A stretch of DNA of 64,000 nt from Candidatus Poseidoniaceae archaeon (lineage in GTDB: Archaea; Thermoplasmatota; Poseidoniia; Poseidoniales; Poseidoniaceae). Location of the stretch: positions 587 to 64,586 of the forward strand of contig JAOMTZ010000008.1 of assembly GCA_028356125.1 (NCBI GenBank), in the 5' to 3' direction. The position numbers and the translations under genes are program-made. The notes beneath the pieces were generated by a model. The model saw only the letters and a list, made by a program, of their open reading frames with translations. It did no database searches and was not told where the DNA came from. Below, one piece after another: positions 1,641-49,996 of the stretch. How positions within the stretch are numbered: the stretch's first letter is position 1; every line of letters begins with the position of its first letter.

Positions 1641-2387
1641 ATGCGTCAGTCATTACCGCGTGTTCCGAAAGACCGTATTGCGGTCTTGATCGGTGCCAAG
1701 GGAGCAACTAGGCGAGAGCTAGAAAAGGCTGCAGGGTGTAAAAGCCTGCAGATAGATTCTGTAACAGGAGACATTGAAGTTGAGTGGGCAGATGCGGGTG
1801 GTTATGACCCAGTCAAGGCTCTCAAACTCCCTGATGTAGTCAAGGCTGTAGGAAGAGGGATGGCTCCCAACAGAGCAATACAATTGTTACAAGATGATTG
1901 GTTCTTCGAGATGGTTGATCTCAGAGACCACGTCGGAAAACGCTCTAATCAGCAACGAAGGATTCGAGCTAGAATTATTGGTTCAGAAGGAAAGATTAGG
2001 AAAATGATTGAGCAACATACTAACACTGAGATATCAATTTACAAGTCTACAGTCGTACTCGTTGGAGACGGTGCTGGGCTTTCTAGTGCAAGACAAGCAA
2101 TCGAGATGCTTGCAAGTGGTAGTGAACATGGTACCGTAATCAAGCATTTAGAGCGGGAAAGAAGAAGATCTCGCATAGATGCGCGTGCTATTGATTACAT
2201 CGAAGCAAAGGAAGATGTTTCTGAACCTGCTGAAGGGTTTGCAGATTTAGTTCCAGGTTTGTCAGATGTTGCAAGTCGAAGAGGACGCCGTTTGAAAGCT
2301 TCACAGGTTGACCCTGAAGACGAAGAAGCGGTAGGCAAAATGATGGAACTATCCGAAGATGAAGAAGTTAGTTGGGAGGAGGAGTGA
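1641..2387 (+). CDS. KH-domain RNA-binding protein, archaeal Dim2/Pno1-like
   Basis: Two KH-like modules (RIAVLIGAKGATRRELEK and ARIIGSEGKIRKMIEQ). ATG 1641 is preferred over the track's TTG 1611. It sits in the aIF1A-Rio1-KH neighbourhood that I recall as conserved in Euryarchaeota. Confidence 0.85.
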   Translation: MRQSLPRVPKDRIAVLIGAKGATRRELEKAAGCKSLQIDSVTGDIEVEWADAGGYDPVKALKLPDVVKAVGRGMAPNRAIQLLQDDWFFEMVDLRDHVGKRSNQQRRIRARIIGSEGKIRKMIEQHTNTEISIYKSTVVLVGDGAGLSSARQAIEMLASGSEHGTVIKHLERERRRSRIDARAIDYIEAKEDVSEPAEGFADLVPGLSDVASRRGRRLKASQVDPEDEEAVGKMMELSEDEEVSWEEE

Positions 2388-4182
2388 CACTCTTCCTCTG
2401 GTACCAAGCTATTGCGAATCCAGTAATCAGTAAGGCGATTATGCCTGGCGCAAACGATGTGACGACACCTATTCCTGTTACACTTGCCCCTGTTACCATC
2501 ATGTGATGGTTATTGTTTGACTCATCTCTTTCATCGACATTATTGTTAGGGTCAATTACTAATCTAAGATCCCACTGACCTGTATTTGGAACTACATAGT
2601 TCCAAGTAATCAATTCACAAAAACAGTCATCAGATAAATTTCCGCCTTCTACAACAACGGTTTGCATTGTAGTCCAATCAACATCTGCACTTCTATCCGC
2701 GGGAGCTGCCTGGAGATATACAGTTACAGCGCCACCGTGGTCCTTGTTTGCCTCTAGCATACTTGTAATGACAATGTCACCATTAGTATCTCCTGGTCTT
2801 ACTACCAAGCGATCAACATTAGTTTCAGTCGCATTCCAGTACAAATCTAGACCTGGTAAAATCTGAACTGCGTTAGGAATAGTGACTAATTCATTGCCTG
2901 CATTATCGGTAACAACTGCTCGTAGCATCAGATATTGCCTAGATTTTGTGGACCATGATGACAAACCAACAGTTCCATTCAACCCATCTACTCCCACGTC
3001 AATCCATCTTCCCGATTGGTCAGGGGTTGCACCGACTCCGTTCAAATCGAATCCATATTGTATTTTGGAGTTAGCCGAATCGATTCCAGAACCTAGGTCT
3101 TGTGCAGCGAATGAAACATTCACATAACCTGTAAGGCTGGTAGTTAGTTCTTCAACAGTCCAGCCAATACCTTCTGGTTCATCGACATCAACTTTGATAT
3201 CAACATCAATTTCATTTCCAATATTTCCTACCTTGTCGATTGCACGTATGGAAATTATGTGTTCACCTTCAACAAAACTCAGTGTAGTGCTAGATGTAGT
3301 GACATCTGTCCACACACCGTCTTGCTCGATTTGGATGTAATCAATGCCAGAGCCACTACCGTCATCTGCTGAAGTATCTAGGTCTGAGATTGTGATACTT
3401 GTGCTGTCACTCCATTCTCCACCGTCTCCAATAGTCGGTGGGGACATTACCGGTGCAGTTCTGTCAACTCCAATGAACATTGTTTTGCTAGTGGATAGAC
3501 CTGAACCGTCCCAAACAGTCAATCTTGGATTGTATGTTCCTTCAGCAATCGCACCTGTATTCCATGCCCAACCATAGGCTAGAGTTCCAGGTCCATCATC
3601 AGATGGACTTCCTGGTCCTGGTACATTGGCTAAACTTGCGTGAGTTAGATCGTCATCGCTAGCGGACCATGTGAATCCTAATGTTCCATCCGCTTCCAAT
3701 GCATACCATGCTCTATCGGTTGCAGATGCGCCACTTCCAACCCCTGAGTTTGATAATGCAAATGATGTGATGATAGGAACTTGGTTTACAATATTGAATT
3801 CCTCACTGTTGTACCATTCAGTGTGATTGCTCACTGATGAATCCCATGCTCGAACTCTGAATGTCCAAGTTCCGTTAGCATACGATGTAGTATCGACATG
3901 CTGCAACCATGGAGTAGTTGTCAGATTGGTGACTTGAGTCCAACTTGTTCCATCTGATGAAATTTCAATTTCAATACTCGAGAGTGTTCCAGTGCCGGAT
4001 GATGCGATACTCAAGGTGAATAAGCCCTTCAAATCTTGTCCTTGCGATGGGCCATTTGAGTACACTAATTCTAAGTCGCTATCGGCTGCTTTGACCTGCT
4101 TAGAATCGGTCAAGAATATCTCATTACTTTGCCCCATAGTCATAATGACTAGGACCAATAGGACTGAGATGAAGCGCCTCAT
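2368..4182 (-). CDS. Secreted, C-terminally membrane-anchored surface protein with Ig-like/CARDB-like modules
   Basis: Long ORF with a hydrophobic N-terminal signal from ATG 4182 (MRRFISVLLVLVIMTMG). It has beta-rich Ser/Thr/Asp-rich repeats, a CARDB-like DPNNNVDERDESNNN segment, and a C-terminal APGIIALLITGFAIAWYQRKS anchor. Its 3' end overlaps the KH gene by 20 nt. Confidence 0.75.
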   Translation of the reverse strand: MRRFISVLLVLVIMTMGQSNEIFLTDSKQVKAADSDLELVYSNGPSQGQDLKGLFTLSIASSGTGTLSSIEIEISSDGTSWTQVTNLTTTPWLQHVDTTSYANGTWTFRVRAWDSSVSNHTEWYNSEEFNIVNQVPIITSFALSNSGVGSGASATDRAWYALEADGTLGFTWSASDDDLTHASLANVPGPGSPSDDGPGTLAYGWAWNTGAIAEGTYNPRLTVWDGSGLSTSKTMFIGVDRTAPVMSPPTIGDGGEWSDSTSITISDLDTSADDGSGSGIDYIQIEQDGVWTDVTTSSTTLSFVEGEHIISIRAIDKVGNIGNEIDVDIKVDVDEPEGIGWTVEELTTSLTGYVNVSFAAQDLGSGIDSANSKIQYGFDLNGVGATPDQSGRWIDVGVDGLNGTVGLSSWSTKSRQYLMLRAVVTDNAGNELVTIPNAVQILPGLDLYWNATETNVDRLVVRPGDTNGDIVITSMLEANKDHGGAVTVYLQAAPADRSADVDWTTMQTVVVEGGNLSDDCFCELITWNYVVPNTGQWDLRLVIDPNNNVDERDESNNNHHMMVTGASVTGIGVVTSFAPGIIALLITGFAIAWYQRKSVTPPPN

Positions 4183-4245: not shown

Positions 4246-4323
4246 GTTGTGTGTTGTTAATATGTAGCCGGAGTCATGGTTACAGTCGGTTGTTTCAAGT
4301 GCTACCCCCCGCCTCTTAGTTAC

Positions 4324-7074
4324 ATGGCAAGTCGCTCTGTGACCACCCTTATCCTCGCAATGATGGTTTTGGCAGTCATACCTATGCCGGCAAGTGCAGG
4401 TGATAGTGGAGGAGTTCAGGCTTCTGAATCGTCAGTTGGAATCAGTCCACAAAGCCCGGTCGAGGGCGGTTCAGTGATTATCACTCTAACCTTACAAAAT
4501 ACAAATAATTTCGAAGCAGAGGATGTACTGTACAAGCTGTACTGGGACGGTGTTGCTACTAATCAACTCATGACTGCTAACACAGTCGATATCCCTGCAG
4601 AATCAACAACTGACATTCAGTATGTACAGTCAGGACTTACAGTTGGGGAACACAAAGTTTGGATTATTTTTGAGTATGATGGCGCAGGAGAACAGATGTT
4701 CTACCGGGATATTATTGTCAGTGGGCTTGCAGATTTAGAGGCCAGTTTGATTCTTACTAGTCCTTCATCATTGAATTCAGGAGATAGCGTTCTAATTAGT
4801 ACTCAAATTAGCAATACAGGTTCCCAAGATGCAGAATCAAGCCGAATGATGATTGATTTGGGCAGCCAGAATCAAATCCTCAACGTTCCTTCTATTCTCG
4901 CTGGAGAAAGCACATGGGTCAATCATAGCATGTCTGCACCTTCGGCAGGAGAACACCTTGTTGAAGTCACAGTAGACCTTGATGATGCTGTTACCGAAGC
5001 CGACGAGAACAATATGTTTAACCAATCACTTACAGTTGATCCGAGGATGGACCTATACCATATTGATATGTTGATAGAGGTTGAATCTGGTGCATTAGAA
5101 GGACCTTGGACAATATCTGGTAACATTGCCCGGGAAGGTGGAAATGGTATCACTCAAGTCCCAATGAAACTTGAAATCAAAGATGACAATGGTTTGGATT
5201 TACCATTGCCAATTTTCAGTGTTAATATTACAGGCGGGGGATTCACGCAACAAGCTTGGAGTTTTGTTTTGGAGTATCAATTCATCTCAACACTACCATC
5301 TGGTAACCACCAAGTGACAGCATTAATCGATCCATACAACTCTGGTTCATTCATTCAAGAATCCACTGACAATGACCGTATAAGCGGATATTTCGACAAG
5401 TTCGAAGTCCCTGATGTTTCGGTAGACCCATACGCGATTCCGTCCCAGAACGTGGTTAACAGTGGCAAGAATATCATCTGGGAAGTCGCAGTCACTAATT
5501 CTGGTCAGATTCCGATTAGTGGGCATTTGGAGTATACTTGGGAAGGCAAGACAGAGGATTCAGAAAGTAAAACTATCCAGCCTGGAGACACTTGGATTTG
5601 GATAGAAACATTACCTCCTGAAAGTGGAGCGCATATTGCTAAACTTGAAGCAAAATGGATAGCAGATAGTTACTCATTCGATGCTAACCCATTCAATTCT
5701 AATGCTAGTGGGGAAGTAAATGTCACAGCACAACTTCGACTTACTTGGTCCAAAACCTCTTCTTCATTGGTAGATTCTGATGGAGAAAGTGCATCTACAC
5801 CATTAACTGATGGTGAGGAATATACTGTTGAAATCAAGTTGTCGGCTCAAGAAACAGGGTCCGTGAATTATTCTTGTGAAAACGAATTGGGAGAAGTTTT
5901 CAGCATAATAGGAGTCGAAGTTACGGATAACCCAATTGTTACAATCGAATGTACATTCACTGCAACTGCACCTTACACAAATATCAATTTGATTCCAAGT
6001 GACCCTGCTGTAAGTACCCCTATGATTTGGAATATGGACACCAAGGGTACAGGGCCTTCCGTCGCCGATGAAGCAGGAAGTATGTCATTCCAAACAGCAG
6101 GTATGATTGCAGCGATTTGTCTAGTTTTGATACTAGTCCTAATTGCAGCAGTGATACTAACTAGAGAGACCGAGGAAGAAGTTGAGAGGGATATCTTCGA
6201 TTACTGTCCAGCGTGTGACGGAGAATTAGATGGTACAGAGGACCGTTGTCCATCATGTTCCTTCAACCTAAAGAAAGCAAGGAAACAATTCCATGATTGC
6301 GGCACATGTAGTGAATCAATACCAGATCTGCTCTCTAACTGCCCATACTGTGGTACTCCTCAAGACATCTCGCTATACTTCGAGAAGCGCGAAAGGAGAG
6401 TTGTCGAAAAGGAAACAGTTGCTCTTATCGATGAAGAAGAAATCGACCCAGAAACTATTCATGCTGCAGGTTACGAAGGATTTGACGAAGCAGTCAAAGA
6501 ATTCGGTTACGATTCTGATGACCTTGAAGGACATTGGGATGATAATATTGCAAAGGCAGAAGCTGAAGTGGAAGCAGCATATGATCGCAGAGTTGCGGCT
6601 GAAGAAGAATTTGAAATGGATGATGAAGAGGCTTTGACTACAGTTACTACAACTCTCAAGTCCATAGATGAAACCTTTGAAGGACACAATATCGATGCTA
6701 TACTCGACAACAAGGATGTCAAAGCACACCTAGACGATGGTGAAGAGTTGAGTGCTAGCGATGCTGAAATTAGAAGTCGGTTGTTTGAGATAACCGGTGA
6801 AAAAGGTGTTCTTCCAGGAGACGAAGTACGTGTTGGAATGGGCGTTCAAGACCGTTCATTAGCAGGTAATGAACTGCCTGAAGATGCTATGGATTTCTCA
6901 TTAGAAGATGAGGATGACGAAGTTAATCCAGTTGCCGCCGCAACAGCTGCAAACAAGAGACGCCGTGGAGTAAGAAGGAAATCGAAGGCTAAGATAGTTG
7001 AATGTGGAGCATGTGGTGCAGATATACCTGAAGATGCAAAGGAATGCTCGACATGCGGTGCTAAATTCGAATGA
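4324..7074 (+). CDS. Type-I surface protein with an extracellular CARDB-like array, one TM helix, and a ~300-aa acidic cytoplasmic tail carrying three zinc ribbons
   Basis: Signal-like MASRSVTTLILAMMVLAVIPMPASAG from ATG 4324 (track start 4276). CARDB-like DLDDAVTEADENNMFNQSLTV. TM helix AGMIAAICLVLILVLIAAVIL. Zinc ribbons CPACDG-x10-CPSC, CGTC-x10-CPYCG and CGACG-x9-CSTCG. Confidence 0.8.
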   Translation: MASRSVTTLILAMMVLAVIPMPASAGDSGGVQASESSVGISPQSPVEGGSVIITLTLQNTNNFEAEDVLYKLYWDGVATNQLMTANTVDIPAESTTDIQYVQSGLTVGEHKVWIIFEYDGAGEQMFYRDIIVSGLADLEASLILTSPSSLNSGDSVLISTQISNTGSQDAESSRMMIDLGSQNQILNVPSILAGESTWVNHSMSAPSAGEHLVEVTVDLDDAVTEADENNMFNQSLTVDPRMDLYHIDMLIEVESGALEGPWTISGNIAREGGNGITQVPMKLEIKDDNGLDLPLPIFSVNITGGGFTQQAWSFVLEYQFISTLPSGNHQVTALIDPYNSGSFIQESTDNDRISGYFDKFEVPDVSVDPYAIPSQNVVNSGKNIIWEVAVTNSGQIPISGHLEYTWEGKTEDSESKTIQPGDTWIWIETLPPESGAHIAKLEAKWIADSYSFDANPFNSNASGEVNVTAQLRLTWSKTSSSLVDSDGESASTPLTDGEEYTVEIKLSAQETGSVNYSCENELGEVFSIIGVEVTDNPIVTIECTFTATAPYTNINLIPSDPAVSTPMIWNMDTKGTGPSVADEAGSMSFQTAGMIAAICLVLILVLIAAVILTRETEEEVERDIFDYCPACDGELDGTEDRCPSCSFNLKKARKQFHDCGTCSESIPDLLSNCPYCGTPQDISLYFEKRERRVVEKETVALIDEEEIDPETIHAAGYEGFDEAVKEFGYDSDDLEGHWDDNIAKAEAEVEAAYDRRVAAEEEFEMDDEEALTTVTTTLKSIDETFEGHNIDAILDNKDVKAHLDDGEELSASDAEIRSRLFEITGEKGVLPGDEVRVGMGVQDRSLAGNELPEDAMDFSLEDEDDEVNPVAAATAANKRRRGVRRKSKAKIVECGACGADIPEDAKECSTCGAKFE

Positions 7075-7224: not shown

Positions 7225-7794
7225 ATGAGGCCTCAAAGAGCGATGTCTGCATTCGTCATGTTAGCCATAATTATGGCTTCTAACATAGGATGCATTGGTC
7301 TCGTTCCTGCAAGAGAGTTCATGGAGGATTTACGAGATCCGCCAAAACTCGAAACGCTTACAGATAGCGTTCAACTAAATCATACCTTCATCACTACAGA
7401 CTCGGACTCAATATTCGAAGATGGAAATAAAGTCCAAGAGTTCGAAGTGGTTTCAGAAACCATCGAAATCAGAGTCTATATGGAAGCACAACTCCAAAGT
7501 GTGGGAATTGAAGAGTTTCTGGGAATTTTAACAGAAGCACGATTCGTAAGAGCAACTCTCTACGACGCCAATGGCGAACAAGTATGGACTGAAGAGGCTG
7601 TTGAGTCCGAGAGGAAAATGACAGCAACATTCCAGCAACCATTAGCTGAAGGGACTTGGAGTTTACAAGTAGAAGCCATAGGATATGGTGAAGAATTCGC
7701 AGGCCTTGTTAAGGATTCATACAAAGTTCAGGTCAAGATAGAAAGCCAATGCTGGGAATATCCTAACGAAGAAGACGTCTGCACTTACGACTAA
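7225..7794 (+). CDS. Hypothetical secreted or membrane-anchored protein
   Basis: Track ORF 7159-7794. ATG 7225 gives MRPQRAMSAFVMLAIIMASNIGC, a signal-like N-terminus. I recognised no family. Confidence 0.6.
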   Translation: MRPQRAMSAFVMLAIIMASNIGCIGLVPAREFMEDLRDPPKLETLTDSVQLNHTFITTDSDSIFEDGNKVQEFEVVSETIEIRVYMEAQLQSVGIEEFLGILTEARFVRATLYDANGEQVWTEEAVESERKMTATFQQPLAEGTWSLQVEAIGYGEEFAGLVKDSYKVQVKIESQCWEYPNEEDVCTYD

Positions 7795-8954
7795 ACTAAA
7801 CTTGAATCACAGGCATAACGCCTTGAACAACTTTGACACTTTCCTTTACGGTTGTGATTCCTTTCTGCTCCGCCTTCAGTCATAAGTCTCTGAACTTCTT
7901 TCACAGCAGAGAATAAAGAATGCTTTGCGTCTTCATCCCATTCTATTGAATGTAGGTTTTCAGAACCGTATCTTAGAACGCCATATGGTGGCTTTCTATC
8001 GGTTGTAGATTCCACTAAATGTAGGTATGCTAATAGTTGCATTCTGTGGGATTTATGCGGTTTGTCAGGAACCTTTCCTGTCTTTTGTTCTACAGGAATA
8101 AATTCTCCTTCTACAATCACTATTTGATCTGGCCGGCCTCTCAACCCAGTATCTTCATCGATTAGTATTCCCGCAGTTGCGTCGTCATCAGAGTAAGCAA
8201 TGTCGATATCTTCCTCTAACCCTGCATCGATACGAGCAACTTCCAATGCACTATCTGCCAGCAGTGCTCGTTGTAGTTGCCATGATGCCAATAAAGTCCA
8301 AAACATTGCAACTGTAACCAGAATAAAACCTGCCTGCTGCTTGTCATCAGCCCACATCAAACCAATTGCATGTAGGCCGAAAATCGTGGCTCCCATTAGC
8401 AAACCAGCTTCAACTCTGCCTCCTTGCCCCCATCCACCAATAAACCCAAACGGTTCCAGTGCAGGAGTAATTGCAGTATCTTCTAGGATACTAATATCTT
8501 CAAGATTATTGGAATTATTAATCGAGGTTCCAGTCCATTTTCTCCAAGGTAGATATATCGCAAAAAGGCCGACAACGAGCCAAATAAACGCAAGAATTGT
8601 TAGATATCGTGCGATATCTACTGGCGTGCGACTATCAGTAATATTGGTGAATATTATTGCGTCCGATATGAATATAATTACGATAGTGAACCACCATGAC
8701 CAGATAATCAGAGCCTTCTTCAACTGATTTTGTTTTTCTTTGAAACTACGAACCTTTTCGTGAATTTCAGCGTGCTTTTCTCTGCCTGCTGAGATTGCTT
8801 CTCCACGGCCAGATTTCCCCTTTCTTGCTAAAGACCAAGATAGAGGGCAATATGCATGCCTTTCAAGATCGCTAGCAGAAACAGGAAGTGGTTTATCTTC
8901 AGAATCTCTCCAAAAACCATCATCGCTTTCTTCGGCGGCAACCAGTTTTTCCAT
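7791..8954 (-). CDS. Cas4/DUF83-family PD-(D/E)XK nuclease with an inserted four-helix transmembrane module
   Basis: Motifs: ERHAYCPLSW (N-terminal Cys), GRPDQIVIVEGEFIPVEQKTG (D..ExK), QLLAY (QxxxY), CQSCSRRYAC (Cx2Cx5C). Four hydrophobic helices lie between the N-terminal Cys and the core. ATG 8954 is preferred over TTG 9008. Confidence 0.8.
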   Translation of the reverse strand: MEKLVAAEESDDGFWRDSEDKPLPVSASDLERHAYCPLSWSLARKGKSGRGEAISAGREKHAEIHEKVRSFKEKQNQLKKALIIWSWWFTIVIIFISDAIIFTNITDSRTPVDIARYLTILAFIWLVVGLFAIYLPWRKWTGTSINNSNNLEDISILEDTAITPALEPFGFIGGWGQGGRVEAGLLMGATIFGLHAIGLMWADDKQQAGFILVTVAMFWTLLASWQLQRALLADSALEVARIDAGLEEDIDIAYSDDDATAGILIDEDTGLRGRPDQIVIVEGEFIPVEQKTGKVPDKPHKSHRMQLLAYLHLVESTTDRKPPYGVLRYGSENLHSIEWDEDAKHSLFSAVKEVQRLMTEGGAERNHNRKGKCQSCSRRYACDSSLV

Positions 8955-9127
8955 TGTCTCAATGCTCAAAATATCCCCCCCTCGTGCACCGAGTCGGGGG
9001 CTTTGCAATCAAGGTTATCCCTACGCGTATGATTTCTAACATCGTTATACTGCGCCTTTACCCTTCGATTTCCTTGGGGAAGTGGTTAATTAGGGGTGGA
9101 CAGTGGCCCGAATGCTGGAGTTATACT

Positions 9128-9727
9128 ATGACTGAACTTCTCATCGACCGTGAAACCTACGAGACACATGCTGTGAACATTGGTACCCAGCAAAAGAGCG
9201 CTGATATGGCACAGTTTATCCAAGAGGTACGTGCTGACGGTTTGTATATGTTGGATATCGATATTACAGACGGCAGAATCCGTGCTATTTCTCAATTCTT
9301 AAACCGCTACAACGCTGCTAACATCATGGTAGTTAGTGCTCGTCAATACGGACAGCGCCCAGCACGCAAGTTCGCAGAGGCAATTGGTGCTAACGCAAGT
9401 GTCGGCCGTTTCATTCCTGGAAGTTTGACCAACCCTGCTCTACGCTCATACGTCGAGCCGGACATGTTGTTCGTAACAGACCCTGCTGCTGACCAGCAAG
9501 CTCTACGTGAGGCTGTTAGTTCTGGACTACCAATCGTTGGAATCTGTGACGCTAACAACAACCTACGTAACGTCGACCTAGCACTACCTGCTAACAACAA
9601 GGGTCGCAAATCTCTTTCTCTACTTTACTGGGTTCTTGCTCGTGAAGTACTGAAGGCACGTGGCGAAACTACCGACGAGGCATGGGCTGAGACTCAAGAT
9701 CTTGAAGACTGGGAATCTACTTTCTGA
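9128..9727 (+). CDS. rps2: 30S ribosomal protein S2 (uS2), archaeal type
   Basis: Family-typical blocks: IMVVSARQYGQRPARKFAE, FIPGSLTNP, DMLFVTDPAADQQALREA, LPIVGICDANN. ATG 9128 is preceded by GGAG. The track's 8888 start is an unsupported upstream extension. Confidence 0.93.
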   Translation: MTELLIDRETYETHAVNIGTQQKSADMAQFIQEVRADGLYMLDIDITDGRIRAISQFLNRYNAANIMVVSARQYGQRPARKFAEAIGANASVGRFIPGSLTNPALRSYVEPDMLFVTDPAADQQALREAVSSGLPIVGICDANNNLRNVDLALPANNKGRKSLSLLYWVLAREVLKARGETTDEAWAETQDLEDWESTF

Positions 9728-10781: not shown

Positions 10782-13700
10782 TTATTCCCATTTCTTCCAA
10801 TCGGCCTTTCCACCTTTAGGCCTGTACCATTGAGTTTCACTATTCTTTGGCCATTTTATGTATTCATAACCGTCTTCTCCCACATTTCCCTTAGCGGCTT
10901 TCGGTGGTGCCTCATCAGGTGCCGTTGGAGTTGTTTTTTCCTCAATTTCAGGTAATTCTTTTTCCATTGATTCAGTTACCATTTGAGCAGCATTGGAAGT
11001 AAGTCCGCGACATTCATCTTGTTGTCTTTCTAGTATATTTCTCAATAATAATGCTTGAGGGATTTTCAGTTTATTCTTACTAATCAACTCGTTAATCTCC
11101 TCCTCATAATCCTCTAGAGTCAGAAGTTGTTCTGAATTCTCGATACCACTTTTGATTCTCTTGTATCGCCTTTTCTTTGCAAGCATTAGGTAAACCGTAA
11201 TCGGGGCAATCAGTAAAGGAAGCAAAAATTCACTGGATAATAAGTCCAAGAATGCTCCAAATGAGATCTCTATTCCATCTGGGTCGTATTGTGTGCTGAA
11301 ACCTTCGCCGGGAACATAGAAAGTACCTCCTCCATATTGCAGTAATGGGTCGCTATCAGCGTCTAGAGGGTCAGTACCTCTCTGTTCTTCGACATCGTCA
11401 GGGAACCCGTCATTATCATCATCTTCATCGAAGAAATCCGGAATTCCATCCTTGTCATTATCGTCTGGAGTCTCGGATGGATTGAATGGGTCGGTCATTG
11501 GGTCCATCTGATATTCCCATGTGTTGAAAATACCATCACCATCAGCGTCAGGGTCTAGAATATCTGGTATTCCATCTCCATCCATGTCTTTGCAACCTTT
11601 CATCGTGATAGTACTATTTCCATGCTGGCTAGGACAGTCATCGCTGTAATCAAGACCGGGTTGGTCAGTGAAATTGTCTCCATCTCCATCAGACCATGCA
11701 TTGGTGTCATTAGGCCATTTGTCAAGATTATCAGCCGAGCCATCTCCATCTGTATCAACACAACCAAGAGTTTCTTTCGTTCCTGCCTGGTCCTCGCACT
11801 GGTCAGCATTATCCCCTACGCCATCTCCATCGCTATCGAGCCATTCATTAGGGTCATTTGCATCCCAATCTATACTGTCGGCATATCCATCTCTGTCTTT
11901 ATCTGGACACCCTTTGTAGGGGCCATCATTTATGTCCCCACGATTATTTTTACATTCATCTGAGTTATCACCAAATCCATCTCCATCACTGTCTTTGCTT
12001 TCATTAGAATCATTAGGGAATTCATCAGCATTATCACCTATCAAGTCACCATCACTATCTCGCCATTCAGTCGGGTCATAACGGAAAGCATCTGAATTAT
12101 TTCCGGATTCGTTATCCCCATAACCATCGCCATCAATATCTAACCACTGAGTAACATCATTCGGGAACTTATCTTGAGTATTATCTCCGTATCCATCTCC
12201 GTCAAGATCTGCCCATTCAGAACGTAATTCTACAAACAAGTCTGGATTGTTTCCGGATTGGTTATCTCCATATCCATCTCCGTCAGAGTCTGACCATTGA
12301 GTCGAATCATCTGGGAAGGCATCATCAACATCTGCATAACCATCTCCATCGTAATCAGGGCAACCTACAAAGTTGCCAGTAGATATGTTGCCATATGTGA
12401 AGGTGCAAGCATCGGCATTGTTCCCTATGCCGTCTCCATCTGAATCTATTGTCTCTAACGGGTCATTGTCAAATTGGTCAGTGTTATCTCCTACACCATC
12501 ACCATCGCTATCAGCACTTTCATTTGCATTTAGGGGGAATGCATCTGAATTGTCACCAGTACCGTCACCGTCACTATCAAACCATTCTCCTGAATCATCA
12601 GGGAATTGGTCTGGATTGGTGCCAGTTGAGTTATCACCCCATCCGTCTCCATCTGAATCATTCCATTGTGACTTGTCGTTGTCGAATGCATCATCCCTAT
12701 CAGCCCAGCCATCTCCGTCACTATCGAGACAACCAAGAGCAGTACCCGAAGTTGCATTGCCCCATTCAAATATGCACCCGTCTCCTTCAAAGCCAGATGA
12801 ATTGTCGCCATATCCATCACCATCAGAATCTAAATATTGGGAATTTATATTTGGGAATTGGTCTGAGTTATCTCCTACTCCATCATTGTCTGAATCGTTC
12901 CACTCAGATTGGTCATTAGGGAATACATCGGTTCCATTAATCCAATATTGTAACCCATCAGCATTCGTCCAGGTTCTCATATCAGAATAGCCATCGCCAT
13001 CCCAATCATCAGTGTTGCTTGTTGCGGAATTAGGACTAGGGTCTCTGAGGTCACTAATTCCATCACCATCAGTATCAGCGCAACCAAGTCTGTCGAGCCA
13101 ACTGCTCCCATATTGCAAAGAACACGGGTCATCAATATCCGCGTATCCATCTCGATCAGAATCCGAACATCCGATGTATGATACATTTTGACCATCTGTA
13201 ATTCCATAGACTGAGTCTCCGTATTGGTTAGTACAATTATCAATAGTATCTGAGAATCCATCGAAATCAGTATCTAGGCATCCGAAAACAGCTCCGTTTC
13301 CATTGATTGCCCCTGCAGCATTTCGATTGGAGGCACCATACGTATTTGGGCACGAATCTGGCTGGAATCCAGTAGTATTGTCCCCATATCCATCCCAATC
13401 GCTGTCATTCCACTGGCTCATTTCACCAGGGAATCTGTCTCTTGCATCCGACCATCCATCAGTATCATAATCGGGGCAACCAAGTACTGGCCAAATCGAA
13501 TTTCCAGCTTGAGTTACACAACCATCAGGATTATTGCCTGTAGGAGCATCTCCAAACCCGTCATTGTCAAAGTCACTCCATTGACTTGAATCATTAGGGA
13601 ATTTGTCAGAATATTTACCCACACCATCGCCATCAATATCTTCAGTAATTCGAAGTAATGTTTGAATTCCATTACCTAGCAACACATGTATATCTCCCGA

Positions 13701-15260
13701 ACTTGAAATCTCAGTTGAATCAATCGAATAGCCTACAAAATTAGTCAATGCCACACTCCATCCCCATCCATAGCCTGTGGCTGATGCCGAAGCATTTGAG
13801 GTGTTGACTTGTGCAACGACTGGCGTGTTTGCTGAATTGATAATAAGTTCCTCAGAACCTAAGGTGATAATTCCTGTTGCTTTGAAAGCAGCAATAATTT
13901 GGGGCTCAGATTGATTCCCTGAAGACAAAACAATCGAATCTATTGTTCCAGTTCCAGAGTACCTTGTATAGCCATCTCGAGTGCATAATGATTCGTTCAT
14001 CCAAGATATGTGGTATACTGCGTTTGATGTAGTTGAACAATGTTCAGGTGCGTTGCCACCGCCACTTGTTGTTCCTTGGTAAGGCTGCTGAAAAGTCTGC
14101 TTTATTGAGAATGCAAATTGATCTGTATCCATCACATGGCCATCACCAATGCAGTCTCCGCAGCTCCCTGAACCGTAACCTCTTTGAACAAAGATTATCT
14201 TTTTCACAACTCCCGCTGAAGATAACTTAGCCATCAATATTCCAGGTGTACACATAGCGTTGGTTCCATATGTATCATCAAAAACTAAACCTCTCGCAGA
14301 ACCCTGTGAACCACACCAATTTGTAGAAGTGGTACCAGAGTTCTTAGTTTTCCCTTGTCCTATGATGTCGCCACTGCTATCATGCCATACATTTGATGAA
14401 AAAGCATCCAAGCTATGTGCGTGACCATTTATGTTACCCCAAGTGCCTGTACAATAATTTGTTGTGTAGCACCCTCCAGTTTTTTTGACCCATTGCCAAT
14501 CCCCAGTTGAATTTAATTTGCCAACAAACATGTTCACTCCAATAGCTCCATAGTTGTTATTAGTATTTGAGCTGTAAAATGAATCACATCTTTTGTATGA
14601 AATCAGGGCGCCAAATGAGATTCCCGCTCTTGTCGCATTGCAATCGCCTACGATTGCTATCGAATTATTAGACCCCCAATCTACATCAGAAATCTCGTTA
14701 CCGTGTTGGGTAGTCACATTGTTCGACCAAATTATACTGAAATTTTGGTCTAATTTCATCACTAGACCTTCTCTGTCATTAGTGGTGTAGTCGGTATTAC
14801 CCACGGTCAAATTAGCACCCATATATCCTCCAAGATATAGATTCCCATATGGGTCAATATCCATGCCTTTTATCCGGTCATCGCCAACTCCTCCAACGTG
14901 GAAGTAACTCGTAATTGTGCCGTTGAAATCGGTTTTTATAATCATAATATCTTCTGATGATGAATTGGACTGGATGATGTTTGTTGCGTTTAATTGTAAT
15001 GCACCATTAAAGTGTCCAAAAAATAAATATTCACTAGTGTTTGTAATTGAAAAATCGACCGCAGTGAAGTTACTTGGAAGTGTAAATGAGTCATCCACTA
15101 CATGTTTTGAAATTAAGGATTCTTTGGTGGGGTCAGCATTATTTTCAGATACCCGTAACTTGGAATCATCTTCATCATCGAGATACAAATCCGGACTGTA
15201 ATGTAAATTCATACTAACAAGGATTGCCAAAAGAATTGCATAATGGGTACGTCTGAACAT
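10782..15260 (-). CDS. Giant (1492 aa) surface adhesin-like protein with an N-terminal beta-rich region, about 29 TSP type-3-like Ca-binding repeats, a TM helix, and a ~150-aa cytoplasmic tail
   Basis: Uninterrupted 4.5-kb ORF. Signal-like YAILLAILVSMNL. Many DSDGDGYGDN-type repeats. TM helix LLPLLIAPITVYLMLAKKRRYKR. The tail ends in the Trp-rich motif QWYRPKGGKADWKKWE. Confidence 0.9.
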   Translation of the reverse strand: MFRRTHYAILLAILVSMNLHYSPDLYLDDEDDSKLRVSENNADPTKESLISKHVVDDSFTLPSNFTAVDFSITNTSEYLFFGHFNGALQLNATNIIQSNSSSEDIMIIKTDFNGTITSYFHVGGVGDDRIKGMDIDPYGNLYLGGYMGANLTVGNTDYTTNDREGLVMKLDQNFSIIWSNNVTTQHGNEISDVDWGSNNSIAIVGDCNATRAGISFGALISYKRCDSFYSSNTNNNYGAIGVNMFVGKLNSTGDWQWVKKTGGCYTTNYCTGTWGNINGHAHSLDAFSSNVWHDSSGDIIGQGKTKNSGTTSTNWCGSQGSARGLVFDDTYGTNAMCTPGILMAKLSSAGVVKKIIFVQRGYGSGSCGDCIGDGHVMDTDQFAFSIKQTFQQPYQGTTSGGGNAPEHCSTTSNAVYHISWMNESLCTRDGYTRYSGTGTIDSIVLSSGNQSEPQIIAAFKATGIITLGSEELIINSANTPVVAQVNTSNASASATGYGWGWSVALTNFVGYSIDSTEISSSGDIHVLLGNGIQTLLRITEDIDGDGVGKYSDKFPNDSSQWSDFDNDGFGDAPTGNNPDGCVTQAGNSIWPVLGCPDYDTDGWSDARDRFPGEMSQWNDSDWDGYGDNTTGFQPDSCPNTYGASNRNAAGAINGNGAVFGCLDTDFDGFSDTIDNCTNQYGDSVYGITDGQNVSYIGCSDSDRDGYADIDDPCSLQYGSSWLDRLGCADTDGDGISDLRDPSPNSATSNTDDWDGDGYSDMRTWTNADGLQYWINGTDVFPNDQSEWNDSDNDGVGDNSDQFPNINSQYLDSDGDGYGDNSSGFEGDGCIFEWGNATSGTALGCLDSDGDGWADRDDAFDNDKSQWNDSDGDGWGDNSTGTNPDQFPDDSGEWFDSDGDGTGDNSDAFPLNANESADSDGDGVGDNTDQFDNDPLETIDSDGDGIGNNADACTFTYGNISTGNFVGCPDYDGDGYADVDDAFPDDSTQWSDSDGDGYGDNQSGNNPDLFVELRSEWADLDGDGYGDNTQDKFPNDVTQWLDIDGDGYGDNESGNNSDAFRYDPTEWRDSDGDLIGDNADEFPNDSNESKDSDGDGFGDNSDECKNNRGDINDGPYKGCPDKDRDGYADSIDWDANDPNEWLDSDGDGVGDNADQCEDQAGTKETLGCVDTDGDGSADNLDKWPNDTNAWSDGDGDNFTDQPGLDYSDDCPSQHGNSTITMKGCKDMDGDGIPDILDPDADGDGIFNTWEYQMDPMTDPFNPSETPDDNDKDGIPDFFDEDDDNDGFPDDVEEQRGTDPLDADSDPLLQYGGGTFYVPGEGFSTQYDPDGIEISFGAFLDLLSSEFLLPLLIAPITVYLMLAKKRRYKRIKSGIENSEQLLTLEDYEEEINELISKNKLKIPQALLLRNILERQQDECRGLTSNAAQMVTESMEKELPEIEEKTTPTAPDEAPPKAAKGNVGEDGYEYIKWPKNSETQWYRPKGGKADWKKWE
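11340..13640 (-). repeat. In-frame array of about 29 degenerate thrombospondin type-3-like calcium-binding repeats (D-x-D-x-D-G-x-x-D)
   Basis: Manual count of DxDxDG motifs in the translated protein. The boundaries are approximate. The repeats are degenerate at the DNA level and coding, not a CRISPR array or mobile repeat. Confidence 0.8.
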
Positions 15261-16739: not shown

Positions 16740-17390
16740 ATGATTGACGAGTTTGGCAAGGATATGAACCCCCAACTACAACAGATGTTGATGCAGGATG
16801 CGATTATCGTCCAACAAGCCATAGAAATGGGCAATGTCCTTCTTGGAATCGAAGCATCAAACAAGTACGATGTGTTCGGGCCTACTGGCCACAAATTAGG
16901 TTCAGTTGCAGAAGTTAAAGGAGGAGCAGGTGGATTCATTCTGCGCCAGATTTTCAATAGTGCTAGGGCTTGCAAGTTACAGATTTTCGATCCTCAAGGT
17001 CAAGAAATTGGATTAATTGACAAGCCATTCAGATTTATTTTCTCTGAGATGGCAGCGATAGGAAAGAACACTGAAGGAATGGGAGAAGTAGGCCGTGTAA
17101 AGCGTGTTAGTCTGATTGCTAGAAACTACGCGATCTCTGTTGGCGGAGTTAACCAATTTTCAATTAAGAGCAGTTTATTCCAGTTCGGTAGAATCAAATT
17201 CGATGTCACTAGAAACGGCATTGTAGTTGCATCAATTGCTAAGAAGTACGAAGGTTTCATGAAAATGGCTTTCACACAGGCAGATAACTTTTCAATACAA
17301 TTCTTTGACAAGAATCTAACCCTTGAAGAAAGATACTCTCTTTTCGCAACTTTGTTCCTTATCGACTTCAACGTCTTTGAACAAAGATGA
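16740..17390 (+). CDS. Phospholipid scramblase (PLSCR) family protein
   Basis: IIVQQAIEMGNVLLGIEASNKYDVF aligns by eye with the PLSCR1 core (QQIELLEVLTGFETNNKYEI). FTQADNFSIQF matches the PLSCR Ca-binding segment DADNFGIQF. The C-terminal helix LFATLFLIDFNVFE resembles ACFLIDFMFFE. The track's alternative start is TTG 16716. Confidence 0.85.
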   Translation: MIDEFGKDMNPQLQQMLMQDAIIVQQAIEMGNVLLGIEASNKYDVFGPTGHKLGSVAEVKGGAGGFILRQIFNSARACKLQIFDPQGQEIGLIDKPFRFIFSEMAAIGKNTEGMGEVGRVKRVSLIARNYAISVGGVNQFSIKSSLFQFGRIKFDVTRNGIVVASIAKKYEGFMKMAFTQADNFSIQFFDKNLTLEERYSLFATLFLIDFNVFEQR

Positions 17391-32747: not shown

Positions 32748-34640
32748 ATGTCCAATGTATGGGTCGTAGACTCAAATTGCTTCATTCATGTTGGTTCAAT
32801 GGCTCCAGACAACTTTCTGAAAGACCTTTCAGGAATATTGGAATCAGGGGACTCTGCTCTCTATGTTACGCCAGGGGTACATGACGAAGTCAGAACAGTA
32901 CGTTTCCAAAGATGGGCCGGTCAACCGAACCTATTGGAAAAGTTCAGAGATATTTTGATCACAGTAACTATTGATGAAGCAGAGGTAAAAGCTCTCGCTC
33001 AGCACATTGGGGAAAAAGCATCACCTCAAGATGTAGATTTATCATTAATGATTCTAGGCTCAAAATTAGCGCATGAAGGCAAGAAAGTAACTCTTGTATC
33101 TGATGATTATAAGATGACAACAACTGGTGAAAAGGCAAATTTAAATTTTGAAACATGCCCTCCATCTACCTTTTTACAACGGTTGGCAGACTTAGGTAAC
33201 AGTGGTCAAAGGTCAAGATTGCGTAGTTTATCCCGAAGGGTACGGGCTGCTGAAATGCGTTACGCTATCAGTAGGGCAGGGCAATATGACATTCAAGCAA
33301 AATTGACTTGGATGGTAGACTCATTACTCTCATCTCGTGTTGCTCTGTCAGAAGATGCGGAGGATGTAACATCTTCAGATGAGAGTAAATTGATTTCAGC
33401 TCTTAACCGTTCAATAAGGGGAGAGAAAGTCAAGAACTCAATGCTCAACCAATTAGGTCCATTACCCGATATCTGCGCTCCAGTGATTCGATTAGATGAA
33501 CACCTTTCTTCAATGACTTCGGGAGAAACTTCTGATGATATCAATCAGGCATATGATTCATCAGTTGAATTACTAAGTGAAATTTTGGAGATGACAGGGA
33601 ATGGTTTGGCTCCCCTAGGAGAAGAGATGGCAGAACTTGCACACAGGGCAATGGCAGGCCATCTATACCGAATGGAATCAGCATTAGGAATGCTATCGAA
33701 GATGTCAGGTAATTTGCGTGTATCGCGATTACACTTATCCCGCGCATTATTCAATGCAACACTCGTAGATGATATGGGTGCTGAAATGAGGGCTATGCAT
33801 CAATTGGGATTACTTGCACTCGCAGCCAATAATTGGCATCGTGCAGCAATGCTTTTCGAGACAGCGGATAGGCAAAGCCAGGTCATCGGAGTTAGCCGGC
33901 TTGGACATTTAGTCCTAGCCGGAATCTCACGCCATCTATCTGGCGATGAAGATCTTGCTAAATCCCATTTAGATGCTGCAAACGATATTGTAAGCGAAGA
34001 CCAAGTCGAAGCGATTTCAGTTCTTACTAACATCGGAAACTCACTCTTAGCAATTGATTGCCCAGGATTAGCAATCGAGATTCTTGACGAAGCAATGGAG
34101 TGCGCTATTGAATCAGGTCAACACGATAAATTGGATATGCTTGCAGAGACATTACTACTAGCAAACACAGCATTGAATGACAAAGACATTCCCCAATATG
34201 AGGGCCTCAGACAATTACTCGATGGTCTAAATCATATCTCAAAAGAAGCATCTGAAGAGTTTGCTGCTAAGATTTCAGATATCGATCAACGTGCTTCTGA
34301 ATTATCTAAGCCTCTTGATGAGACTTGGAGTGAATGGCAGGATGCATCAAGGCTGATTCCATCAGGATCACCTCTAATTGTATTGCGAGTAGATGTAGAT
34401 GAAGCAGGTCGTAACCTGATAATTTCTCACCACTCTGAAATTGGAGCAATCGGTTTATGGCTTCCGGAAGGTGGTGTAATTGCAGCTCCGGGCAACTCTA
34501 TTATGGTCCATGACAGTCGAATAAAGGTCGCAGCACCAACTGATGAGTTACGTGAAACTCACAATATTAGAGGTGTAGTGGCTGTTGAAGACTCATCAGC
34601 GCTCACATTCACTGCGAGTACCGAAGATATAATGGAATAA
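32748..34640 (+). CDS. PIN-like (Nob1/Fcf1-type) N-terminal domain fused to a large helical-repeat (TPR-like) region and a beta-rich C-terminal domain
   Basis: Acidic residues are arranged as in PIN domains: VWVVDSNCFI, GVHDEV, DVDLSLMILG, VTLVSDDYKM. Residues ~330-480 are helical and Ala/Leu-rich. There is no zinc ribbon. Confidence 0.7.
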   Translation: MSNVWVVDSNCFIHVGSMAPDNFLKDLSGILESGDSALYVTPGVHDEVRTVRFQRWAGQPNLLEKFRDILITVTIDEAEVKALAQHIGEKASPQDVDLSLMILGSKLAHEGKKVTLVSDDYKMTTTGEKANLNFETCPPSTFLQRLADLGNSGQRSRLRSLSRRVRAAEMRYAISRAGQYDIQAKLTWMVDSLLSSRVALSEDAEDVTSSDESKLISALNRSIRGEKVKNSMLNQLGPLPDICAPVIRLDEHLSSMTSGETSDDINQAYDSSVELLSEILEMTGNGLAPLGEEMAELAHRAMAGHLYRMESALGMLSKMSGNLRVSRLHLSRALFNATLVDDMGAEMRAMHQLGLLALAANNWHRAAMLFETADRQSQVIGVSRLGHLVLAGISRHLSGDEDLAKSHLDAANDIVSEDQVEAISVLTNIGNSLLAIDCPGLAIEILDEAMECAIESGQHDKLDMLAETLLLANTALNDKDIPQYEGLRQLLDGLNHISKEASEEFAAKISDIDQRASELSKPLDETWSEWQDASRLIPSGSPLIVLRVDVDEAGRNLIISHHSEIGAIGLWLPEGGVIAAPGNSIMVHDSRIKVAAPTDELRETHNIRGVVAVEDSSALTFTASTEDIME

Positions 34641-49938: not shown

Positions 49939-49996
49939 AATTGACTGCAGGTTGGCAAACCATGTTAAATGTCCCAGTGTAGGAATGGGTGGTAGC

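Follow-up and report, generated by a model that had tools for sequence, protein, structure and literature searches.

What does a Cas4 nuclease do when no CRISPR system lies near it and a membrane segment appears to interrupt its own fold? This question is raised by a gene in a 64,000-nucleotide (nt) stretch of DNA from a Candidatus Poseidoniaceae archaeon (assembly GCA_028356125.1, contig JAOMTZ010000008.1, positions 587-64,586, forward strand), which we call the window. An earlier note on the stretch had described the gene product as a Cas4-family nuclease split by four hydrophobic helices and had proposed that it could act on incoming DNA at the envelope, in defence or in uptake processing. 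We now read it as a vertically inherited solo-Cas4 of the Thermoplasmatota that is an integral membrane nuclease, confined at the membrane and acting on DNA there, most plausibly on incoming DNA. Taken as a whole, we think this reading about equally likely to be right or wrong.

The split Cas4 domain

The gene and its parts are listed in Table 1. Some gene callers use an alternative upstream TTG start at 9008, which gives 405 amino acids (aa); since the orthologs are mostly 389-392 aa long, we place the start near the ATG. The Cas4 domain comes in two parts, residues 25-62 and 246-387, that are jointly complete. The N-terminal part carries C36, a predicted Fe-S ligand within ERHAYCPLSW, and a G57-x3-H61 motif with H61 as the putative metal-binding His. 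The C-terminal part holds the catalytic residues D276, E289, and K291 (D...ExK), then QLLAY, which supplies Q306-x3-Y310 (QxxxY), and finally the Cys triad C373-x2-C376-x5-C382 in CQSCSRRYAC. The protein has only these four Cys, and C36 and the triad are predicted to bind a [4Fe-4S] cluster. Every Cas4 hallmark named in the earlier note is present in its place.

Profile searches gave scores above the curated cutoffs. Pfam returned PDDEXK_1 (PF12705) at 1.1e-12 (48.8 bits; cutoff, 22) and Cas_Cas4 (PF01930) at 1e-10 (42.3 bits; cutoff, 22.7), the latter with residues 272-382 on profile positions 53-158 of 160, together with a weak match to the N terminus of Exo5. TIGR00372 (cas4) scored 69.2 bits with a cutoff of 65, and the best of the PADLOC Cas4 models reached 2.8e-20. 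We also considered Druantia DruK, and rejected it: the DruK matches (3e-11) are far weaker than those to Cas4, and no helicase was found among the ORFs of the window that were scanned with Pfam.

The Cas4 profiles match in a single stretch, with their C-terminal two-thirds (profile positions ~53-160, residues ~253-383), which fits an insertion that displaced the first third of the domain. A single-sequence phmmer search of the PDB sequences found nothing relevant, and a family profile was needed to obtain matches there, to 8d3l, 4r5q, 4ic1, and 7mi4. This profile matches solved Cas4 as two collinear pieces: positions 7-58 correspond to residues 9-61 of type I-C Cas4 (FC...GQxxH), and positions 231-332 to residues 102-202. 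The insertion therefore sits between the His-bearing helix and the strand that leads toward the catalytic Asp, at a point between residues ~61 and ~90-102 of type I-C Cas4. H61, D276, E289, K291, Q306, and Y310 fall on their counterparts in solved Cas4.

The residues on which activity would depend are kept on both sides of the insert. We aligned 30 full-length members with four transmembrane (TM) helices, 24-85% identical to the query. On the N-terminal side, Y35, C36, and G57 are invariant; on the C-terminal side, G273, P275, D276, P287, K291, P296, S302, H303, Q306, G325, Y329, R365, H367, C373, C376, and C382 are. H61, E289, and Y310 are nearly invariant. The catalytic and Cys-ligand residues are likewise invariant or nearly so in an alignment of 38 short-form sequences. 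In Foldseek, the top matches were the Cas4 chains 7mi5_A, 8d3l_I, 8d3l_J, 8d3q_J, and 7mi4_A (probability 1.00, target-normalised TM-score ~0.5), followed by Dna2, MGME1, and AdnAB. By each sequence and fold comparison made, the protein belongs to the Cas4 family; the PD-(D/E)XK/Cas4 fold that the earlier note had expected from profile and structure searches was recovered by Pfam, TIGR00372, PADLOC, and Foldseek.

One further motif is specific to the family. Directly before the Cys triad stands (H)RNH-x-R-x-GKC (residues 364-382), with R365 and H367 invariant; it is not conserved in the aligned sequences of solved canonical Cas4 proteins. From its position and conservation, it could be an extra element that contacts DNA or metal.

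Table 1. Positions in the window of the Cas4 gene, its parts, and neighboring genes
Feature	Position (nt)	Strand	Remarks
Membrane-inserted solo-Cas4, complete coding sequence	7791..8954	(-)	ATG start, 387 aa; stop codon 7791-7793
N-terminal Cas4 piece, residues 25-62	8769..8882	(-)	Matched by the family profile to residues 9-61 of type I-C Cas4 8d3l_I
C36 codon	8847-8849	(-)	Predicted Fe-S ligand
H61 codon	8772-8774	(-)	Putative metal-binding His
Continuous helix, residues 52-104	8643..8801	(-)	His-bearing nuclease helix, then ~19-residue stalk (63-80), then TM1 (81-103); AlphaFold2 pLDDT 86-92
Helical hairpin 1	8544..8714	(-)	TM1 81-103, outside loop 104-116, TM2 117-137; invariant W85, W87, W88, D98, P136, W137
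Cytoplasmic loop between hairpins, residues 138-180	8415..8543	(-)	MGII-specific; absent from short forms
Juxtamembrane motif LEPFGFIGGWGQGGRVE, residues 166-182	8409..8459	(-)	F171, G173, G174, W175, G179, E182 invariant in MGII
Helical hairpin 2	8274..8414	(-)	TM3 181-200, outside loop 201-206, TM4 207-227; invariant E182, H195, W219, T220, W225, Q226, L227
Stalk 2, residues 228-245	8220..8273	(-)	Helical continuation of TM4 into nuclease core; AlphaFold2 helix H205-244
C-terminal Cas4 piece, beta-sheet core, residues 246-387	7794..8219	(-)	Pfam, TIGRFAM, PADLOC, Foldseek, and PDB profile matches
Catalytic block GRPDQIVIVEGEFIPVEQKTG	8082-8129	(-)	D276, E289, K291
QLLAY	8025-8039	(-)	QxxxY
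(H)RNH-x-R-x-GKC motif, residues 364-382	7809-7865	(-)	Family specific
Cys triad, CQSCSRRYAC	7809-7838	(-)	C373, C376, C382
Convergent neighbor, small protein	7225..7794	(+)	189 aa from ATG; no Pfam or PADLOC family
Divergent neighbor, ribosomal protein S2	9029..9727	(+)	Pfam Ribosomal_S2 4.2e-20; in 78 of 80 loci
CARDB surface protein	2368-4182	(-)	Large
CARDB surface protein	4276-7074	(+)	Large; TM helix and cytoplasmic tail
Surface protein with Ca-binding repeats	10782-15260	(-)	1492 aa
Direct repeat within the preceding gene	11728-12907		14 diverged copies, 40 nt
Scramblase homolog	16740-17390	(+)	216 aa; PF03803, 6.7e-38
Protein without Pfam match	32748-34640	(+)	630 aa
Protein without Pfam match	49985-52984	(+)	999 aa
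UvrC	52978-54702		
Protein beside UvrC	54763-56832	(+)	689 aa; weak STAND/AAA NTPase matches

A hairpin-built membrane insert

Kyte-Doolittle hydropathy shows three strong hydrophobic segments in the insert, at residues ~81-103, 117-137, and 209-227, and a weaker one at 181-200. AlphaFold2 (AF2), run with the family alignment, returned a model with a predicted local distance difference test (pLDDT) score of 84.5 and a predicted template modeling score (pTM) of 0.79, and with four corresponding helices: H52-104, H111-134 (TM2), H180-200 (TM3), and H205-244. Confidence is low only in the cytoplasmic loop specific to Marine Group II (MGII), where pLDDT falls below 50 at residues 145-177; residues 138-165 of this loop are variable and disordered. 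The last helix runs from TM4 through a stalk of ~17 residues into the core. By residue count, stalks of ~17-19 residues would span about 25-30 Å. A separate model of the Aciduliprofundum boonei protein (pLDDT 84.8) has the same layout, with helices H29-78, H82-106, H112-138, and H145-183; its C-terminal Cys region is of low confidence.

The four-helix insert of the earlier note is thus upheld by both hydropathy and model; what it had missed is that the insert is repetitive and that its helix number varies across the family. In the short four-TM forms, the TM1-TM2 hairpin significantly resembles the TM3-TM4 hairpin (z up to 13.6, measured against composition-preserving shuffles), and in eight-TM forms all four hairpins are mutually similar (z up to 16). 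Twenty-eight hairpin units align as a single motif of ~60 residues. Its helix a begins on the cytoplasmic side with a conserved Glu and continues as 'FA..A..LA..G'; a short turn outside the membrane then leads to helix b, 'IL...AL.WL..A..FLY', with an invariant Trp. The two hairpins of MGII proteins have drifted apart (z about 1), and a hairpin hidden Markov model (HMM) built without MGII sequences still matches the query in register at residues 186-231 (i-E 0.002) and, weakly, at 112-135 (i-E 0.05). This HMM matched none of the other membrane proteins of the window. Searching 5.8 billion proteins with the hairpin alignment gave no match at E≤0.01, in a search that also missed true family members and so had no power. 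Judged from these alignments, the insert is a set of tandem copies of a ~60-aa helical-hairpin repeat.

As a side observation, the hairpin part of the family profile has weak matches to de novo designed TM helical bundles (TMHC4_R, O43-TM; E about 0.006). This match reflects the idealised, regular character of the helical hairpins and not homology.

Homologs are numerous: 1131 in a 90% cluster database at E≤1e-3, and 858 representatives in an exhaustive 50%-identity library. When one genome was scanned for each GTDB species, 551 genomes proved to encode a relative; the best 80 of these are all Poseidoniales (MGII) and include both MGIIa and MGIIb. The named homologs in the cluster database are called 'Dna2/Cas4 domain-containing protein [Candidatus Poseidoniaceae archaeon]', and the named relatives belong exclusively to the Thermoplasmatota. 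An IMG/VR scan for viral homologs gave 115 pattern matches, 0 of which were confirmed. The earlier note had pointed to the Thermoplasmatota, correctly: more distant relatives in other members of the phylum have the insert, with 2, 4, or 8 helices. A four-TM short form is encoded by the cultured A. boonei (ADD08116.1, annotated only as 'CRISPR-associated protein Cas4'), an eight-TM form by a Thermoplasmata genome (UCH89508.1), and a two-TM form of 280 aa by metagenome-assembled genomes of 'Ca. Poseidoniia'.

The 858 representatives were screened for hydrophobic segments, and helices were counted in the 61 that are complete, meaning that the N-terminal Cys motif and the C-terminal Cx2Cx5C are both present. 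These 61 fall into three discrete size classes: ~260-285 aa with 2 TM helices, ~320-410 aa with 4, and ~500-600 aa with 8. At the default hydropathy threshold, 58 of the 61 score 2, 4, or 8, and the other three become 4, 2, and 8 at a slightly lower threshold; we therefore dismissed their odd helix numbers as a threshold artefact. The helix count is 2, 4, or 8 in all 61, and none of them is an odd-numbered or six-helix form. The even count, on which the earlier note had placed weight for the query protein, is a real constraint on the family. The number is always even because the insert grows by whole hairpins, in units of 1, 2, or 4. Because both ends of every hairpin lie on one side of the bilayer, the chain returns to the cytoplasm whatever the number of units, which lets the N-terminal Cys and His come together again with the C-terminal core and the Cys triad.

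On which side of the membrane does the nuclease lie? We counted Lys and Arg in the TM flanks of the representatives and found 465 on the predicted cytoplasmic side versus 180 outside, with 53 of 55 representatives in agreement. The hydrophilic 80-residue N terminus has no signal or Tat (twin-arginine) motif. This positive-inside bias and the missing export signal place the nuclease in the cytoplasm. An extracellular nuclease was ruled out on these two grounds and by its Fe-S requirement. Hydropathy, charge, and the AF2 models show the features of an integral membrane protein, predicted to hold its complete Cas4 domain toward the cytoplasm on a two-helix stalk. The loops on the outside are very short in the query, 13 and 6 residues.

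Conservation was examined in 76 complete Poseidoniales orthologs of 50-98% identity, and the ratio of nonsynonymous to synonymous substitution rates (dN/dS) was obtained by region from 52 pairs. TM3, TM4, and the F171-x-G173-G174-W175-x3-G179-x2-E182 motif are conserved to the level of the nuclease core. Among the residues that never vary within or next to the bilayer are W85, W87, W88, D98, P136, W137, R138, H195, W219, T220, W225, Q226, and Q228. The dN/dS value is 0.062 for the nuclease core, 0.065 for the TM helices, and 0.075 for the stalks; the GGW motif has the lowest of any region, 0.031. Higher values were found for the outside loops (0.099), the variable cytoplasmic loop (0.128; the least conserved region in the MGII ortholog comparison), and the N-terminal tail (0.178). 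No sign of diversifying selection appeared in the regional dN/dS, outside loops included. The membrane module is under purifying selection equal to that on the active site. Together with the 551 genomes, this bears out the claim of a selected architecture over a chance fusion.

These values also bear on whether the protein is a working nuclease at all. It might instead be what remains of a degenerate Cas4, put to new use as a membrane or Fe-S protein, an extracellular nuclease, or an annotation or assembly error. Nothing specific favors this, apart from the low confidence of the A. boonei model at the C-terminal Cys region. The catalytic and cluster residues stay the same across widely diverged members, hundreds of independent assemblies carry the gene, its dN/dS is 0.06, and the charge bias and missing export signal speak against an extracellular domain. 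We regard this explanation as very improbable.

The invariant polar residues raise another alternative, a membrane-gated nuclease. Here the hairpin array would sense a membrane perturbation, the membrane potential, or a partner membrane protein, and would switch the nuclease through the two continuous helices that reach the catalytic His helix. In both AF2 models, the helix that bears G57 and H61 in the query runs on into TM1, and TM4 runs on into the helix that enters the core. The polar residues D98, E182, H195, T220, Q226, and Q228, in or at the bilayer, are invariant, the GGW motif is the most constrained region, and the repeat unit keeps its Glu and its Trp. SNIPE, a membrane-bound nuclease of Escherichia coli, is reported to be auto-inhibited at the membrane (10.1101/2025.11.03.685801). 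The case for gating is a purely structural one, however; the polar residues could serve helix packing or oligomerisation, and there is no conserved partner gene. A simple sequestration or anchor model does not account for the invariant polar residues and the GGW motif, which keeps the gating idea alive, as a long shot.

Genomic neighborhood and rival roles

Pfam scans of 50 selected open reading frames (ORFs) of at least 99 aa in the window found no Cas1, Cas2, or helicase domain, and TRF and a direct-repeat scan of the window found no CRISPR array. The only candidate array, the direct repeat at 11728-12907, proved to be coding sequence for the repeats of a Ca-binding surface protein. In 13 related loci of other lineages, we found neither cas genes nor a CRISPR array, and no defence island or mobile-element context was seen at the Cas4 locus or at the related loci examined. 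The earlier note was right about the missing cas context; that it regarded this as remarkable does not hold up, since solo-Cas4 is encoded in most archaea and is vertically inherited (PMC5704561).

Synteny was scored over 80 Poseidoniales loci, all of which have the gene and conserved synteny. The small convergent protein, whose stop overlaps the Cas4 stop by 4 nt, is beside the Cas4 gene in 79 of the 80. The wider neighborhood holds eIF-1A, RIO kinase, a KH protein, two CARDB surface proteins, Dus, MscS, a scramblase homolog, and several regulators. Because all neighbors are conserved, this synteny is order-wide collinearity and is uninformative about functional linkage.

Outside the order, the neighbors differ across seven other Thermoplasmatota lineages. 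In the A. boonei clade, they are POR genes, a beta-lactamase-fold gene, DUF3198, and LTD-PLDc_2. Elsewhere, the gene lies beside the RFC small subunit (locus L084), TPD and GlmS with RNase HII nearby (RNase HII in L086 and L092), ribosomal L15e with FtsZ nearby (FtsZ in L087), or THEP1, Trm1, RpoL, and TruD. The sole neighbor that recurs across lineages is LTD-PLDc_2, in two clades. Of the conserved neighbors that the earlier note suggested looking for, the loci examined show order-wide synteny in the Poseidoniales and no functional partner common to the other lineages.

One rival reading is a housekeeping DNA repair or maintenance nuclease. Such an enzyme would resect ends or process flaps and single-stranded DNA (ssDNA) of the cell itself, with the membrane module regulating its activity or localising it, for example, to membrane-attached sites of replication, segregation, or repair; foreign DNA would not be its target. 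The gene behaves as a core gene, near-universal in the Poseidoniales, with fixed synteny, housekeeping neighbors, dN/dS of ~0.06 throughout, and no viral copies. The RFC small subunit, RNase HII, and FtsZ appear among its neighbors in other lineages, and its structural neighbors Dna2, MGME1, and AdnAB are repair and replication nucleases. Hudaiberdiev et al. (2017) concluded that the evolution of solo-cas4 resembles that of ordinary cellular genes and that a function in repair is possible (PMC5704561). On the other hand, no repair partner (helicase, Mre11/Rad50, NurA/HerA) is conserved across lineages, the only repair gene of the window, UvrC, is 44 kb away, and rigid fixing at the membrane, away from the nucleoid, is not obviously useful to a repair nuclease. 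We judge a repair role unlikely, if well short of improbable.

The recurring LTD-PLDc_2 gene encodes an LTD plus double-HKD PLDc_2 (+PKD) protein with a C-terminal TM anchor (L081:9131-10969, L090:9106-10896, L083:4339-6996, and L093:3808-5979). In L083 and L093, it lies immediately next to the start of Cas4. In the A. boonei clade, the genes downstream of Cas4 encode first a metallo-beta-lactamase-fold protein and a DUF3198 protein (L081:8021-9146, L090:8013-9121) and then the LTD-PLD protein. This row, on one strand with short gaps, is possibly an operon.

The association points to DNA-uptake processing as another role, in which imported DNA would be degraded or trimmed in the manner of the ComEC nuclease, perhaps together with a surface PLD-family (NucT-like) enzyme that cuts outside. 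ComEC/Rec2 is a polytopic membrane protein with a nuclease domain for processing DNA at the membrane; it has a large channel domain and a metallo-beta-lactamase nuclease, and it shares no sequence or fold relationship with the Cas4 protein. The LTD-PLDc_2 gene lies on the same strand as Cas4, adjacent or three genes away, in two clades of differing gene order (the A. boonei clade, L081, L082, and L090, and the L083/L093 clade). Matches of its product to PDB sequences include the transformation-associated nuclease NucT, and the metallo-beta-lactamase-fold gene is directly downstream of Cas4 in the A. boonei clade. Those PDB matches also include a phospholipase, however, and the PLD protein may be one. 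The association is absent from five other lineages, MGII included, and no channel or competence genes were identified. With 2-8 helices per monomer and very short outside loops, the protein is not evidently a DNA conduit. An uptake role seems to us quite improbable.

Several other genes of the window deserve mention in their own right. The small convergent protein has a hydrophobic, possibly lipoprotein-like N terminus (…NIGCIG…). Both large CARDB surface proteins are kept beside Cas4 across the Poseidoniales, and in the one at 4276-7074 a TM helix precedes a cytoplasmic tail that bears double zinc-ribbon motifs and a long acidic stretch. The 1492-aa surface protein has many 'DSDGDGxGDN' thrombospondin-type-3-like Ca-binding repeats, encoded in part by the diverged direct repeat, and its locus is conserved at this position in only 1 of the 80 Poseidoniales loci. 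The scramblase homolog matches the eukaryote-type phospholipid Scramblase family over its full length, which is unusual in an archaeon. Two large proteins, of 999 and 630 aa, have no Pfam match, and the 689-aa protein beside UvrC has only weak ones.

A proposed membrane-confined nuclease

How does the protein compare with known enzymes? It has the catalytic domain of solo-Cas4 (COG1468/PF01930; Methanosarcina mazei Solo-Cas4, SSO0001 [PDB 4IC1], Pcal_0546 [PDB 4R5Q]), with D...ExK, QxxxY, and the 1+3 Cys set. Like these, it is a stand-alone archaeal gene outside cas loci and mobile elements, inherited mainly vertically along order-level taxonomy, which makes it a member of the solo-Cas4 class. 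Known solo-Cas4 proteins, however, are compact, soluble, single-domain proteins of ~170-220 aa that often form soluble oligomers, whereas this family has 2, 4, or 8 helices inside the domain (four in the query), as well as HRNH-x-R-x-GKC before the Cys triad and YCPLSW. The soluble Solo-Cas4 of M. mazei binds a cluster and degrades DNA, and its overexpression slows growth (PMC12501428).

CRISPR-associated Cas4 (type I-C, 8D3L; the Cas4/Cas1 fusion, 7MI4/7MI5) provides the best structural and profile matches. It stands beside cas1/cas2 and an array, in contrast to the window and the 13 related loci, and with no cas1, cas2, or array near the gene, a role in PAM-specific prespacer trimming is not expected. 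Dna2, AddB/AdnAB, Exo5, and MGME1 belong to the same PD-(D/E)XK fold subclass; they are soluble, usually fused to or partnered with a helicase, and lack a TM insert.

The best functional analogue is SNIPE, an anti-phage nuclease that cuts phage DNA during injection and becomes toxic once its TM segment is removed (10.1101/2025.11.03.685801). In SNIPE, the tether keeps the nuclease away from the chromosome of the host and places it where entering DNA can be cut. These properties make membrane sequestration of a nuclease an established principle. Both SNIPE and the Cas4 protein place a nuclease on the cytoplasmic face of the membrane, and the comparison is one of mechanism only. SNIPE is bacterial and combines GIY-YIG and DUF4041, an unrelated fold, with a single N-terminal TM helix; in the Cas4 protein, PD-(D/E)XK/Cas4 domains are the only ones that Pfam finds. 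SNIPE also has variable N-terminal regions, whereas the archaeal Cas4 is a core gene under uniform purifying selection. The earlier note knew of no characterised example of its proposal. Full-text literature searches, the dedicated Cas4 phylogenomics paper (PMC5704561) included, likewise gave no description of a TM-inserted Cas4; SNIPE, on the other hand, is a characterised membrane nuclease that cuts incoming DNA. What is new with respect to characterised Cas4 members is the intradomain polytopic membrane module of hairpin repeats; the enzyme family is already known.

We propose that the protein works as follows. A complete Cas4 PD-(D/E)XK domain with a predicted [4Fe-4S] cluster would sit on the cytoplasmic face of the membrane, interrupted between the helix of the metal-binding His and the first core beta-strand by the hairpin module, here of two hairpins. 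The two connecting helices, continuous with TM1 and TM4, would hold the active site at a fixed distance under the bilayer. By analogy with SSO0001 and M. mazei Solo-Cas4, the domain would be a metal-dependent DNA nuclease. Its reach would be limited to DNA ends and ssDNA at the inner membrane surface, leaving the bulk chromosome out of reach, and it would take no part in CRISPR adaptation. In the least certain step, it would act constitutively on DNA at the membrane, most plausibly on DNA that enters the cell from viruses, other mobile DNA, or uptake.

Several points weigh against this proposal. Its topology is based on Kyte-Doolittle hydropathy and the positive-inside rule, and the packing of C36 onto the Cys triad is read from invariance and from the high pLDDT and pTM. 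The invariant polar residues and the GGW motif suggest that the module is more than an anchor. Finally, the housekeeping neighborhood, the order-wide synteny, the uniform purifying selection that extends to the outside loops of 13 and 6 aa, and the absence of a defence island at the loci examined and of confirmed viral homologs in the IMG/VR scan are atypical of an arms-race defence gene. We hold the role loosely because the gene evolves like a housekeeping gene rather than like an arms-race defence gene.

A bolder idea makes the hairpin array a working membrane device instead of an anchor. It could be a switch that senses a membrane perturbation, for example, virus entry, and relays it along the two continuous helices to the catalytic His helix, or an oligomeric ring, under or within the membrane, that threads entering DNA into a Cas4 toroid. 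We think this rather improbable. If true, archaea would have a hitherto unknown mechanism that links the passage of DNA at the membrane to its degradation, operating constitutively in a group that ranks among the most abundant archaea of the surface ocean.

For the cellular role of solo-Cas4, the membrane form is the first strong positional clue. Over a phylum-level group and a long evolutionary time, the enzyme appears to have been fixed at the cytoplasmic face of the membrane. With a tether as constrained as the active site, this fixing narrows the substrates to DNA that reaches the membrane. The architecture is itself unusual: a polytopic membrane module inside a soluble enzyme fold, growing in hairpin units of 1, 2, or 4, which would allow the two halves of an Fe-S nuclease to reassemble on one side of the membrane. 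The database label 'CRISPR-associated protein Cas4' is misleading for these proteins. The question is a testable one because A. boonei, which carries the protein, is cultured. Since Marine Group II is very abundant in surface oceans, whatever the enzyme does to viral, exogenous, or own DNA would take place on a very large scale.

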